Shown here in pieces: positions 9,125 through 16,849 of a stretch of 35,094 bases of DNA; the first letter of the stretch is position 1, and each line of letters begins with the position of its first letter. Made by a program: the position numbers and the translations under genes. A model generated the notes under the pieces. The model searched no databases. It worked only from the letters and a program-made list of their open reading frames with translations, and was not told the DNA's origin. The stretch comes from a virus (Duplodnaviria > Heunggongvirae > Uroviricota > Caudoviricetes). The DNA lies in IMG/VR virus record IMGVR_UViG_2541047854_000004. One strand, 5' to 3'.

Positions 9125-9959
9125 TTCTGATAATTCTGGGCGTTATATTGTTCTGGCAGCGGCAAAATCCGTTGCCGGGATTGGCGTCCTGAAATTGATT
9201 ACTGAGCATAACCGCGCTCATGCGGTTTTTTCGTGTCATGAGCATTGCTACGCCCAAATTATGGTGGGGCGTACAGGGCCGACTTCGGTCGGGCCGGGTT
9301 CGGTAGTCTCCGGTAACGCCAACCCTGTACGTCTCACCACCTCTGTGATTGGCGTCCCATGTGGTGAGTTTTCTAAAAAACTGACTACCGGGGCTGTCAC
9401 TATGACTACTCTCCCAACCCTCTCTCAACCTGAAATTGCCATCGTTGATGGTCAGGCTGTTACATCTTCTTTGGCTGTTGCTGACTTCTTCTCTAAACGT
9501 CATGACGATGTTCTGAAAAAGATTCGCATTTTGGATTGTTCTCCAGAGTTTTGTGCCCGCAATTTTGCGGAGACATCAATTTTGGTACGCCAGCCCAACG
9601 GCGGTACTCGCAAACTACCTTGCTATCAAATAACCCGCGATGGCTTTGCGTTTCTTGCTATGGGTTTCACGGGTAAACGTGCTGCCCAGTTCAAAGAGGC
9701 ATACATCAATGCCTTTAACCAGATGGAACAGGCGCTGATCGGAAAGGTTGATACTTCATGTGTCGCGCACAATGCCCACGTTGTTTACCTCTACATGGCT
9801 GAAATTCACCGCGTTTGGTTAGAACAACTTTATCCGATGCTGGTTTCAGTTCAGTCTCCGCTGGCTTCATCGCTCTACGACTACATCAACGATGGTGTAT
9901 TCGTTGCCGGGCTGGTGGACTCGGAACTGAACGAAAAGCATAAGGAGGTGCGTAAGTGA
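9102..9959 (+). CDS. Rha / ORF6N-type phage regulatory protein (antirepressor-like)
   Basis: C-terminal ~185 aa carry the Rha-like motif (IVDGQAVTSSLAVADFFSKRHDDVLKKIRIL...YQITRDGFAFLAMGF). The first ~100 codons (9102-9401) are of doubtful coding quality; an alternative start is the ATG at 9402. Confidence 0.5.
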   Translation: MSKPVMIDSDNSGRYIVLAAAKSVAGIGVLKLITEHNRAHAVFSCHEHCYAQIMVGRTGPTSVGPGSVVSGNANPVRLTTSVIGVPCGEFSKKLTTGAVTMTTLPTLSQPEIAIVDGQAVTSSLAVADFFSKRHDDVLKKIRILDCSPEFCARNFAETSILVRQPNGGTRKLPCYQITRDGFAFLAMGFTGKRAAQFKEAYINAFNQMEQALIGKVDTSCVAHNAHVVYLYMAEIHRVWLEQLYPMLVSVQSPLASSLYDYINDGVFVAGLVDSELNEKHKEVRK

Positions 9960-10897
9960 GCACCAAATTAACCGGCTATGTATGGGATGGTTGCGCAGCG
10001 TCAGGCATGAAATTATCCAGTGTGGCAATTATGGCCCGTCTGGCTGATTTCAGTAATGACGAGGGTGTGTGCTGGCCATCAATTGAAACCATTGCCCGCC
10101 AGATTGGCGCGGGGATGAGTACCGTCAGAACGGCTATCGCACGGCTGGAAGCAGAAGGCTGGTTAACGCGTAAGGCGCGTCGCCAGGGTAACCGCAATGC
10201 GTCGAATGTTTATCAGCTTAACGTTGCGAAGCTTCAGGCTGCGGCATTTTCTCAACTGTCAGATTCTGACCCGTCAAAATCTGACGCATCAAAATCTGAC
10301 CCGTCAAAATTTGATGCGTCGAAATCTGGCAAAAAAGCGTGTTTTCACCCGTCAGAATCTGGCGGGGATCCGTCAGTAAAATCAAAACATGATCCGTCAG
10401 ATAAAAAACCTTCTCGTCCGGACGCTTTGCAACCGGACACGCAGACGGCTGAACAGGATTTTTTAACTCGCCATCCTGATGCGGTTGTATTCAGCCCTAA
10501 AAAGCGCCAGTGGGGAACGCAGGATGATTTGACCTGCGCACAGTGGCTCTGGAAAAAAATCATCGCCCTGTACGAGCAGGCCGCCGAATGTGACGGCGAG
10601 GTGGTTCGTCCCAAAGAACCGAACTGGACAGCATGGGCAAACGAAATTCGCCTGATGTGTGTGCAGGATGGTCGTACTCACAAACAAATCTGCGAGATGT
10701 ACAGCCGCGTCAGCCGTGATCCGTTCTGGTGCCGTAACGTGCTCAGCCCGTCGAAGTTGCGGGAAAAATGGGATGAGCTTTCCCTGCGCTTATCGCCGTC
10801 CGTCAGCACGCACACAGAAAAACGTGAAGACCCGTACTTCAAAGCCAGTTACGACAACGTGGACTACAGCCAGATCCCGGAAGGATTCAGGGGGTGA
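9956..10897 (+). CDS. Replication initiator (N-terminal winged-HTH; internal origin iterons)
   Basis: GTG start with AAGGAGGTG RBS; N-terminal HTH (PSIETIARQIGAGMSTVRTAIARLEAEGWL); iteron array inside the linker-coding region, as in lambda O. Confidence 0.7.
   Translation: MSTKLTGYVWDGCAASGMKLSSVAIMARLADFSNDEGVCWPSIETIARQIGAGMSTVRTAIARLEAEGWLTRKARRQGNRNASNVYQLNVAKLQAAAFSQLSDSDPSKSDASKSDPSKFDASKSGKKACFHPSESGGDPSVKSKHDPSDKKPSRPDALQPDTQTAEQDFLTRHPDAVVFSPKKRQWGTQDDLTCAQWLWKKIIALYEQAAECDGEVVRPKEPNWTAWANEIRLMCVQDGRTHKQICEMYSRVSRDPFWCRNVLSPSKLREKWDELSLRLSPSVSTHTEKREDPYFKASYDNVDYSQIPEGFRG
10265..10400. repeat. Iteron array, putative phage origin of replication
   Basis: 15-bp units TCTGACCCGTCAAAA / TCTGACGCATCAAAA / TCTGACCCGTCAAAA / TTTGATGCGTCGAAA (10265-10324); further CCGTCAG cores at 10349, 10370 and 10394; then an A-rich stretch. 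Encodes the SDPSK/SDASK peptide repeats. Confidence 0.6.
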
Positions 10898-11388
10898 TCA
10901 TGAGTCTTTTGAATGAAGTTCAGAAATTCATTGAAGCCCATCCGGGCTGTACTTCCGGAGACATTGCGGATGCTTTTGCAGGTTACTCACGGCAGCGCGT
11001 ACTGCAGTCAGCAAGCAAGTTACGTCAGAGTGGGCGTGTGGCTCACCGTTGTGAAGGGAAAACACGCAGACATTTCCCACACCAGGCTGAGATATCGCAG
11101 GAGGAGAAACTGCAACCTGTTCTTGAAACCATACCTGTGAGCAATTTCTATGTCGGCACTAACGACCCCTGGGTGATTTTGTGCCTGACCCGTCATGCTG
11201 AAGAACTGGAGTCCAGGGGCTTATACCGTCGTGCTGCAACGGTGTGGATGGCGGCATTCCGTGAAAGCCACTCCCAGCCAGAACGAAACAATTTTCTGGC
11301 GCGTCGTGAGCAGTGCTTACAGAAAAGCAGCAAGCGCGCAGCATCGGGTGAAGAGTGGTATCTGTCAGGGAATTACGTGGGGGCTTAA
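10894..11388 (+). CDS. PerC/ANR-like transcriptional regulator with N-terminal winged-helix extension
   Basis: C-terminal motif LESRGLYRRAATVWMAAFRESHSQPERNNFLARREQCL resembles the PerC/Pch family signature (from memory). Start is GTG 10894 (overlapping the upstream stop) or ATG 10900. Confidence 0.5.
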   Translation: MIMSLLNEVQKFIEAHPGCTSGDIADAFAGYSRQRVLQSASKLRQSGRVAHRCEGKTRRHFPHQAEISQEEKLQPVLETIPVSNFYVGTNDPWVILCLTRHAEELESRGLYRRAATVWMAAFRESHSQPERNNFLARREQCLQKSSKRAASGEEWYLSGNYVGA

Positions 11389-14270: not shown

Positions 14271-14651
14271 ATGCGTGATATTCAGATGGTTCTTGAACGC
14301 TGGGGGGCATGGGCGGCAAGTGGTAACACCGGGGTGGACTATTCTCCGATCGCTGCCGGATTCAAAGGACTTTTACCATCTGCCACTAAACCACGTCCGG
14401 CCTGCTGCGATGATGACGGACTTATCATTGAAAACTGTCTTGCTCGTCTGAAGCAGAAAAAACCTGAGGAGTATTCGCTTCTCATTGCTCATTATTTGTT
14501 GCGAATATCAAAAAGACAGATAGCCAGGACGAGAAAGAAAAGCGAAAAAGCAATACGAATTGAGATGCAGATAGCCGAAGGGTTTATTGACGGATGTTTG
14601 TCTGTGCTGGGGGTAAGACTGGAGATGGACGACTGGCTGCTAAAAAAGTAA
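14271..14651 (+). CDS. Q: Late-gene antiterminator Q (phage-82/Qin-type)
   Basis: N-terminus MRDIQMVLERWGAWAA... matches the Phage_antitermQ family as I recall it; GGAG RBS 7 nt upstream; followed by a short leader and intrinsic terminator. Confidence 0.7.
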   Translation: MRDIQMVLERWGAWAASGNTGVDYSPIAAGFKGLLPSATKPRPACCDDDGLIIENCLARLKQKKPEEYSLLIAHYLLRISKRQIARTRKKSEKAIRIEMQIAEGFIDGCLSVLGVRLEMDDWLLKK

Positions 14652-15200: not shown

Positions 15201-15914
15201 ATGGCTGTTGTCTGTTCAGTTATCATGGTTTGCTCCCCAATTAATATTTTTCTTGAAAAGGATACGTTGTCACTTAAGCCAGGCTCAGTTGTTCTGGCCA
15301 CCAAATGCATCAGGGAGCTTTTCCTTATGCATTATGGCAAAGTTAAAATTGTCGATATAAGCGAATCCGTCGTAAGTCAATATCTGGAAAGTCAGCATAA
15401 GCTGACGAGGACTCGTCTGACTGACATTCCGCTTTACCTGTTGCTGGAACCCAACAATCCTGCGTTGGCTGCGGCTTTAATTACCAGCCAGGGATTTTCC
15501 GGAGAGGCCACGGATATGTTTCTTATGATGGCCTGCCTGTCTCTGTTTGAAACAGATGAACGGATGTCATTGTTTTTAAGTGGATGTTTATCCAGCATAA
15601 GTGCCAAAGTCAGGGCGATAATTCAGACAGATATATCAGCAAGCTGGACGCTTGGTGCGATTGCTCTACAGTTGCATATGAGTGAGAGTTTGTTAAAGAC
15701 AAAACTGAAAAATGAAGGGGGCATGTTCAGTCGCTTGTTGCTGGAAGAGCGGATGCGTGTTGCTGTAAATATGTTATGTTCCCGGCATGGATATGGACAG
15801 GCTATAGCAGAAAAATGCGGTTATTCAAGCAGGTCCTACTTTATTTCTGTATTTCACCGCTATTATGGCTTCCCGCCAGACAGATATGTATCCAGGCAAG
15901 GGCTTGATTATTGA
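15201..15914 (+). CDS. AraC/XylS-family transcriptional regulator (AppY-like moron)
   Basis: C-terminal dual-HTH signature (WTLGAIALQLHMSESLLKTKLK...GYGQAIAEKCGYSSRSYFISVFHRYYGFPPDRY); N-terminus MAVVCSVIMVC resembles prophage-encoded AppY as I recall it; AT-rich. Confidence 0.8.
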   Translation: MAVVCSVIMVCSPINIFLEKDTLSLKPGSVVLATKCIRELFLMHYGKVKIVDISESVVSQYLESQHKLTRTRLTDIPLYLLLEPNNPALAAALITSQGFSGEATDMFLMMACLSLFETDERMSLFLSGCLSSISAKVRAIIQTDISASWTLGAIALQLHMSESLLKTKLKNEGGMFSRLLLEERMRVAVNMLCSRHGYGQAIAEKCGYSSRSYFISVFHRYYGFPPDRYVSRQGLDY

Positions 15915-15942
15915 TTTTCATCTGATTATTATTTTTTGGCTC

Positions 15943-16018
15943 GGCCCTTTAGCTCAGTGGTGAGAGCGAGCGACTCATAATCGCCAGGTCGCTGGTTCAA
16001 ATCCAGCAAGGGCCACCA
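15943..16018 (+). tRNA. tRNA with CAU anticodon (Met, or Ile if lysidine-modified)
   Basis: 7-bp acceptor stem GGCCCTT/AAGGGCC, D-arm AGCTCAGTGG, anticodon loop CTCATAA, T-loop GGTTCAAATCC, encoded CCA. Position matches the ileZ-argN-argO trio of Stx-type lambdoid phages (from memory). Confidence 0.85.
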
Positions 16019-16025
16019 TCACATA

Positions 16026-16099
16026 CCGCCATTAGCTCATCAGGAAAGAGCGCCAGCCTTCGAAGCTGGTTGCGCGGAGTTCGGGTCCCCGAAGGCGGT
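16026..16099 (+). tRNA. tRNA-Arg(UCG)-like, possibly degenerate
   Basis: Anticodon loop CTTCGAA, but the acceptor stem has an A-A mismatch, the T-loop is TTCGGGT (non-canonical position 58) and no CCA is encoded. Confidence 0.55.
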
Positions 16100-16115
16100 T
16101 CATTATCTGTATCCT

Positions 16116-16192
16116 GCGTTGTTAGCTCAGCCGGACAGAGCAATTGCCTTCTAAGCAATCGGTCACTGGTTCGAATCCAGTACAACGCGCCA
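16116..16192 (+). tRNA. tRNA-Arg(UCU)
   Basis: Acceptor stem GCGTTGT/ACAACGC, anticodon loop CTTCTAA, T-loop GGTTCGAATCC, discriminator G and encoded CCA. Confidence 0.85.
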
Positions 16193-16207
16193 GACTTATT
16201 TTTCCCA

Positions 16208-16232
16208 GCTCGCTTTTGCGGGCCTTTTTTTT
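16208..16232 (+). terminator. Intrinsic terminator after the tRNA cluster
   Basis: Stem GCTCGC/GCGGGC (one G-U pair), TTTT loop, then T8. Confidence 0.5.
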
Positions 16233-16432
16233 AAATGTCTCACAATTCAGACGGTTGACAGTTGTCTGTTTTGCGGGGAGTTTGTTAAAAGAAACTGGCA
16301 TGGTGAATCCCCCTGTGCGGAGGGGCAATCAGCGAGTAGGTATATGGGATAATCGCGGATTCAGGTGCTGGTACTGAATTCACCGGGAGGCACCCGGCAC
16401 CATGCAGTTGACTGAAACCATGTATACTCTCA

Positions 16433-16462
16433 GGCCCCACGCACATGTGTTGGGGCCTTTTT
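16433..16462 (+). terminator. Intrinsic terminator upstream of the lysis cassette
   Basis: Stem GGCCCCA/TGGGGCC, 11-nt loop, then T5; a second hairpin preceded by A8 (16470-16496) follows immediately. Confidence 0.55.
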
Positions 16463-16633
16463 ACATGCAAAAAAAAGCCCGCATATGGATACGGGCGGCA
16501 AGGAACAAAAAACGTGAAGTGATCTATTCAGCCAGTGGATAATACCCTGACGTTACCATATTGCGCAATCGCGCATTCTTTCTTTTTCGCTCCCCTTATA
16601 ACTACGCCATCCGTTCGCTGCGGAGGTGAGGCT

Positions 16634-16849
16634 ATGAAATCCATGGATAAAATTTCAACGGGCATTGCCTACGGCACCTCCGCAGGCAGTGCTGGCTACT
16701 GGTTTTTACAGTGGCTTGATCAGGTCAGTCCGTCACAGTGGGCTGCGATTGGTGTACTGGGGAGTCTGGTTCTGGGCTTCCTGACATATCTGACTAACCT
16801 GTATTTCAAAATCAGAGAGGACCGTCGTAAGGCTGCACGGGGAGAGTAA
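16634..16849 (+). CDS. S: Phage-21-type pinholin (S21) with dual start
   Basis: [71 protein letters not shown] matches S21 as I recall it; two in-frame starts (16634 and 16643); GGAGGTGA RBS. ORF-track start at 16535 is an extension. Confidence 0.85.

Follow-up and report, generated by a model that had tools for sequence, protein, structure and literature searches.

The tRNA trio between Q and the lysis genes

We observed exactly three tRNA genes in the window, the whole 35,094-nt stretch of phage DNA that was analysed. ARAGORN placed them at 15943-16018 (anticodon cat), 16025-16101 (tcg) and 16116-16192 (tct). All three exceeded the gathering score of 29 bits for Rfam RF00005, with 72.5 bits (15943-16015, E 3.4e-14) and 70.1 bits (16116-16189, E 1.7e-13) for the outer genes and 43.4 bits (16026-16099, E 3.5e-06 over the whole window) for the middle one. 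The order CAU, UCG, UCU is homologous to that of the annotated ileZ, argN and argO genes of the Stx2a phage WGPS6 (AP012539), and this segment of WGPS6 shares 94.2% identity over 292 nt with window 15939-16230. PGAP labels the genes of a 100% identical chromosomal copy as tRNA-Ile, tRNA-Arg and tRNA-Arg. At 100% identity the window matches a prophage of E. coli SY033 whose integration site adjoins yecE, and stx is absent from this prophage. Judged by sequence homology, the trio is the well-known ileZ-argN-argO operon of lambdoid phages and Stx-type phages of E. coli, here in a stx-negative prophage. The features of the locus are as follows.

14271-14651, + strand: late antiterminator Q, the upstream boundary (Pfam PF06530 Phage_antitermQ, 177 bits; PGAP "antiterminator Q family protein")
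Between Q and the AraC-family gene: truncated ORF
15201-15914, + strand: AraC-family HTH regulator, a moron between Q and the tRNAs (Pfam HTH_AraC 50.3 bits, HTH_18 39.8 bits)
15904-15932, + strand: sigma-70 promoter-like site TTGATT-17 nt-TATTAT, ending 10 nt 5' of ileZ (consensus scan)
15943-16018, + strand: ileZ, tRNA with anticodon CAU, CCA encoded (Rfam 72.5 bits; PGAP tRNA-Ile)
16026-16102, + strand: argN, tRNA-Arg(UCG), including TCA (Rfam 43.4 bits; ARAGORN cloverleaf)
16116-16192, + strand: argO, tRNA-Arg(UCU), CCA encoded (Rfam 70.1 bits, zero non-standard pairs)
16208-16232, + strand: intrinsic terminator-like hairpin at the end of the tRNA unit, GCTCGC-TTTT-GCGGGC with CT8 after it (scan)
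16231-16235: junction matching the stx2AB insertion point of Stx2a phages, the "empty site" (blastn)
16269-16468, + strand: STnc100 sRNA, full-length over model positions 1-206 (Rfam RF02076, 140.2 bits; gathering score 47)
16634-16849, + strand: class II (P21-type) holin, which opens the lysis cassette and marks the downstream boundary (Pfam PF04971, 122 bits)

The original prediction had put the three tRNAs between Q and the lysis genes, in the slot of the ileZ-argN-argO cluster of Stx-type phages. ARAGORN and Rfam, the positions of Q and the holin, and the identity to the annotated WGPS6 cluster all agree with it, though the tRNAs do not lie immediately 3' of Q because the AraC-family gene intervenes. 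The holin is followed by YdfR, lysozyme and Rz (PGAP: lysis protein), and then by terminase and HK97-type head and tail genes. Elsewhere in the prophage, the early region carries isrK (9156-9232, + strand, 68.6 bits in Rfam) beside a C4 antisense RNA (9257-9344, + strand, 82.3 bits), as well as a PGAP-annotated gene for a PerC-family transcriptional regulator (10894-11388, + strand).

Both ends of the putative transcription unit recur in related phages. A TTGnnn-17-TATTAT motif was found at a constant distance from ileZ in all 14 of the commonest upstream haplotypes (133 of 149 related loci), despite divergent upstream sequence, and at least 105 of 147 related loci have the terminator hairpin with its T-run 3' of argO. 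From these elements we infer that the trio forms an autonomous tRNA operon, which Q-modified late transcription also reads through. Given its own promoter-like site and the Q-antiterminated late path, the operon could already be expressed in the lysogen, and more strongly once the prophage is induced.

As had been noted, no toxin-like ORF lies 3' of the tRNAs. The description of 16193-16633 as non-coding, however, did not survive, since this stretch holds both the terminator and the STnc100 gene. STnc100, a prophage-borne sRNA that is already known and often lies close to Stx-phage sRNAs (bioRxiv 10.64898/2026.05.13.724894), was present in the trio locus of 21 of the 25 related loci scanned; it also occurs in the Stx2a phage L002, just 3' of stx2B. 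Alignment to L002 by blastn matched window 15939-16230 with L002 3001-3292 and window 16236-16326 with L002 4629-4718, and the 1.3 kb between these segments in L002 carries stx2A and stx2B. Because homology resumes at 16236 with the sequence that follows stx2B, stx2AB is, relative to the prophage, an insert of 1.3 kb that separates the tRNA terminator from STnc100. The window thus supplies a clean empty site for the stx2 cassette at this position.

A terminator-like hairpin on the minus strand (16469-16517), GCCCGTATCCATATGCGGGC with T8 after it, directly adjoins STnc100 at its 3' end. The equivalent position of six related loci (L023, L030, L059, L060, L078 and L082) is occupied by the anti-sRNAs AgvB or AsxR, on the strand opposite STnc100. 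Neither AgvB nor AsxR was found beside STnc100 in the window, and 16469-16517 gave no Rfam family match. The element could be an undescribed variant or merely a bidirectional terminator.

The outer tRNA genes and codon demand

We compared the outer genes with their relatives in E. coli K-12. ileZ is identical to ileX at 68 of 76 positions, its 6-67 pair is compensated, and it keeps C4-G69 and C5-G68, which are the features by which TilS discriminates tRNA-Ile2. These features point to an ileX-type tRNA-Ile2 that would read AUA after lysidine modification, presumably by host TilS. argO is identical to argU at 56 of 77 positions, with the same anticodon loop and fully compensated stems, and would be a reader of AGA and AGG. 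Compared with the WGPS6 copies, ileZ is identical and argO differs by one base. ileZ carries a non-standard 27-43 pair, yet it is the most conserved of the three genes. Both ileZ and argO are structurally clean and under strong conservation. A reverse case occurs in phage vB_EcoS-611R1 (L153, 296-364), in which argN is intact and ileZ is degenerate, with a 4-nt deletion beside the anticodon and the annotation tRNA-Pseudo-TAT.

Next, codon use in the PGAP gene models of the prophage was compared with that in 44 host genes of the same strain (occurrences per 1000 codons).

ATA: prophage 6.7, host 3.9
AGA: prophage 5.7, host 1.3
AGG: prophage 5.3, host 1.1
CGA: prophage 5.7, host 3.5
CGG: prophage 11.2, host 4.6

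ATA, AGA and AGG were enriched 1.7, 4.3 and 5 times in the prophage, in line with the original statement that the UCU and CAU tRNAs read codons that are rare in E. coli. That statement omitted the UCG tRNA, although CGA and CGG are likewise rare in E. coli; in the late genes CGG reached 13.5 per 1000, against 4.6 in the host. Since all five codons are enriched in the prophage, all three anticodons address phage-enriched codons. To our knowledge, E. coli K-12 has neither a cognate U34 tRNA for CGA/CGG nor a UCG-anticodon counterpart of argN. Combined CGA and CGG use in the genes flanking argN did not differ between loci with an intact, lesioned or dead argN, in what is a weak test on partial contigs. 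The AraC-family gene at 15201-15914 is extremely rich in rare codons, with ATA and AGG each at 21 per 1000, and is a possible beneficiary of the adjoining tRNAs. It is also found in O104:H4 prophages and in an Stx2k phage.

Lesions and diversity of the middle gene

The middle gene had been described as having an acceptor-stem A-A mismatch, the T-loop TTCGGGT and no encoded CCA. Each of these is real, and a further mismatch in the T stem had been overlooked. The cmscan alignment flags two non-standard pairs in argN, an acceptor-stem A6·A67 and a T-stem A52·C62. The T-loop reads UUCGGGU against a consensus of UUCgAaU and has G58 where A58 is expected; A58 is near-universal, and G58 abolishes the T54-A58 pair. 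The discriminator T16099 is followed by TCA at 16100-16102, whereas both outer genes encode CCA. We know of no E. coli chromosomal tRNA gene that lacks an encoded 3' CCA. Where the CCA is missing, the host CCA-adding enzyme can attach it, as happens with some tRNAs of phage T4. Compared with a canonical tRNA, argN thus lacks the full set of seven acceptor pairs, the five-pair T arm with an A58 loop and the encoded CCA. It retains the anticodon loop CTTCGAA (7 nt, U33, purine at 37), A20 and C35, and its D-loop is ATCAGGAAA. The anticodon arm and the D arm, with the ArgRS identity elements A20 and C35/G36, are undamaged.

Folding predictions placed the cloverleaf of the window allele 7.0 kcal/mol above the MFE structure, compared to 1.5-3.7 kcal/mol for intact alleles, and showed a competing hairpin, UUCGG/CCGAA, that is created by G58 and A67. 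In all alleles the base before C1 (A16025) is able to pair with the discriminator U73 (T16099). ARAGORN accordingly draws an 8-bp acceptor stem, and this potential pair is the reason that both ARAGORN and PGAP start argN at 16025.

To place these lesions in a population, we assembled 149 more copies of the trio, taken from viral contigs and phage records, giving 150 with the window. Exact 14-nt words in ileZ and argO served as anchors for this sample, and clonal prophages are among its members, so the diversity ratios derived from it are only approximate. No lesion was present in 41 copies, one in 24, two or three in 37 and four or more in 23, the class of the window; the remaining 25 differ in length through a deletion or a replaced arm. 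Intact alleles (L004, L008 and PhiR49_2) have full pairing, the T-loop TTCGAGT or TTCAAGT and an encoded CCA, and scored 56.0-58.4 bits. Single-lesion alleles (A67 alone, G58 alone, or A67 with TCA) scored 53-54 bits, the window allele and its CCA-bearing sister 43.4 bits, and the Stx2a-phage argN 43.0 bits. Dead alleles, with a broken acceptor stem, a degenerate T-loop, or a deleted or replaced anticodon arm, fell below 29 bits. With about 48 of the 150 copies, the lineage with T-arm lesions was the most frequent one sampled. The CC of the CCA after U73 was kept in 142 of 150 copies, with TCA in 8 and a different change in 1.

Among 80 unique haplotypes, nucleotide diversity was 0.015 in ileZ, 0.055 in argO, 0.124 in argN and about 0.17 in the two spacers. 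Pair-breaking changes affected 6 of 21 stem pairs among 31 distinct full-length argN alleles. The same 31 alleles showed no two-sided pair change and no covariation above shuffles; as the family is too young to give this test power, it neither supports nor excludes structure. The anticodon loop CUUCGAA was invariant in all full-length alleles, and the first 16 nt, from the 5' acceptor strand to the start of the D-loop, were nearly so. Alleles that have lost the anticodon arm still keep the acceptor and T-arm sequences and their position between ileZ and argO, and alleles of the L064 type have the first two acceptor pairs broken. In PhiR49_2, the sequenced phage closest to the window (98.7% identity across the region), argN is intact; of the 10 positions at which the two differ over 298 nt, 7 lie within argN (binomial P = 0.004).

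We also noted that the middle slot is annotated inconsistently, as Arg, Lys or Pro, whatever its state. In PPompW-type prophages (L126 1887-2021 and 12 similar loci; LC567818 and others), its D stem is shortened and its loop reads CCTTTAA; tRNA-Lys is the label in public records and from ARAGORN, yet it scores below 29 bits in Rfam. The TL-2011c phage has been reported to carry a Met-Pro-Arg trio, with "Pro" in the middle slot (PMC7366253).

The explanation that we consider probable, with a good deal of confidence, is a known operon in a stx-negative prophage whose argN is dispensable and is here a hypomorphic or dead allele that stays linked to ileZ and argO. In this mechanism, ileZ would supply AUA decoding, argO would supply AGA/AGG decoding and argN would read CGA/CGG. 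argN would be under weak or no purifying selection, evolving nearly as fast as the spacers and often being deleted or rearranged, and a damaged copy would be carried along through its linkage to two strongly selected neighbours. The window argN itself is most likely a dispensable tRNA-Arg(UCG) in a hypomorphic or dead form, and we judge a strong impairment of its decoding to be likely. The suspicion that the middle copy is degenerate is strengthened by its intact sisters at 56-58 bits against 43.4, by its near-neutral diversity and by its frequent destruction in related phages. The term pseudo-tRNA, however, is only probable, because the gene passes the covariance threshold and has no PGAP pseudogene flag.

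These last two points belong equally to the reading that argN is still a working tRNA-Arg(UCG) whose lesions are tolerated, and which, after trimming of its precursor, receives its CCA from the host enzyme, is charged by ArgRS and helps CGA/CGG decoding. The gene exceeds the Rfam gathering score by 14 bits, ARAGORN types it as tRNA-Arg, PGAP (through tRNAscan-SE) accepts it, and the invariant anticodon loop with A20, C35 and G36 would suit such a role, as would the use of CGA/CGG, which is twice as frequent in the prophage as in the host (and for CGG in the late genes 13.5 against 4.6 per 1000). The T-arm lesions are common to a lineage that persists in about 48 of 150 copies and could be tolerated, and a single mismatch is no proof of lost function, given the 27-43 pair of the highly conserved ileZ. 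CCA addition by the host is possible, and the "classical" Stx2a argN scores no better than the window allele. We nevertheless regard a working argN as rather unlikely. Four lesions have gathered in one allele while its nearest relatives have intact ones, G58 costs the T54-A58 pair, the cloverleaf is a predicted 7 kcal/mol less stable than the competing fold, the diversity is spacer-like with no compensatory change and frequent deletion, and codon use in neighbouring genes is indifferent to the state of argN.

A non-canonical role for the middle tRNA had also been proposed, and we found no positive evidence for one. Retention of argN for a non-decoding role, be it as an RNase P/RNase E processing mark for ileZ and argO, as a source of regulatory fragments or as a decoy for tRNA-Arg nucleases, might account for the arm-deleted alleles that keep their acceptor and T-arm sequences and position, for the nearly invariant first 16 nt and for the conserved A(-1)/U73 complementarity. 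We consider it very improbable: no covariation was seen, the L064 type breaks the first two acceptor pairs, and Stx2e phages carry only Met and Arg tRNAs (PMC7366253), so that the outer two genes seem able to do without the middle one. The variation also spares the anticodon loop, contrary to what nuclease evasion would lead one to expect, and that idea was rejected on this ground. There is a slim chance for the broader idea that the slot is retained for a non-decoding job or that its anticodon arm is repeatedly exchanged (UCG; UUU-like in PPompW; "Pro" in TL-2011c), in which case G58 and A67 would be selected because they favour the UUCGG/CCGAA hairpin. That the middle gene is a chance cloverleaf-like match, neither gene nor remnant, is hardly credible: it has the lowest score of the three, but its E value of 3.5e-06 for the whole window and its homology to canonical alleles and to the annotated argN refute this.

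If the decay of argN is real, supplementation of CGA/CGG decoding would be of little value to these phages, while that of AUA and AGA/AGG is strongly maintained. The module is already known, the prophage is ordinary and the window presents nothing new in kind. The added value lies in the population view of 150 copies, in which the middle gene ranges from canonical to destroyed between nearly invariant neighbours, and this matters for annotation.

Spread of the cluster and comparison with known systems

The cluster is widespread in E. coli. A 1.1-kb query (window 15600-16700) matched 4121 of 5426 complete E. coli genomes, and ileZ alone matched 7527 places in 3057 of the complete genomes. Identical copies of ileZ were found in 2776 complete E. 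coli genome records and of argO in 1336, and the identical argN allele with its spacers occurred in 28, O104:H4 strains among them. The megablast counts for argN require a 28-nt exact word and are lower bounds, which we did not take as evidence of argN absence. In a scan of 185,579 species genomes (one per bacterial species) with the same anchors, the single match was a Collinsella MAG (L125, UQIB01000015.1, "uncultured Collinsella sp."), on a contig with the trio that is probably a mis-binned E. coli prophage contig and hence contamination. With this probable contaminant as the only match, the cluster is, at the stringency used, essentially limited to phages of E. coli.

Stx phages are known to carry tRNA genes between Q and stx that vary with the Stx subtype: Stx2a, Stx2c and Stx2d phages have a Met-Arg-Arg set, and Stx2e phages only two genes, Met and Arg (PMC7366253). 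An ileX-like gene near stx2 goes back to Schmidt et al. 1997, as cited in PMC3636060. In the literature collection that we searched, no paper dealt with how argN is expressed or what it does.

The closest described counterpart is WGPS6, an Stx2a phage of the 933W type, which is like the window in the three genes, their order and anticodons, the downstream terminator and the place 3' of Q. The points of difference are its 1.3-kb stx2AB insert, where the window has no stx, and the AraC-family gene that stands between Q and the tRNAs in the window. Having stx directly 3' of the trio is usual for this cluster but does not define it. The argN genes of the window and of WGPS6 differ at about 11 positions: CCA and A58 are both present in the Stx2a gene and missing from the window, whereas the Stx2a gene has a mismatch of its own, A51·C63, and three G·U pairs. 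PhiR49_2 (PV340570) and the L004 and L008 types, none of them Stx phages, have flanks with 98.7% identity to the window and share its promoter, terminator, STnc100 and lysis genes, but their argN is fully paired, encodes its CCA and scores 56-58 bits, compared with 43.4 in the window. On the host side, ileZ and argO resemble the E. coli chromosomal genes ileX and argU and are phage-borne paralogues of them. Finally, phages SfI, Sf6, ST64T and P21 share the tRNA slot 3' of Q and the same proposed codon-supplement role, and they fill this slot with other tRNA species, Asn GUU and Thr UGU (PMC3636060).
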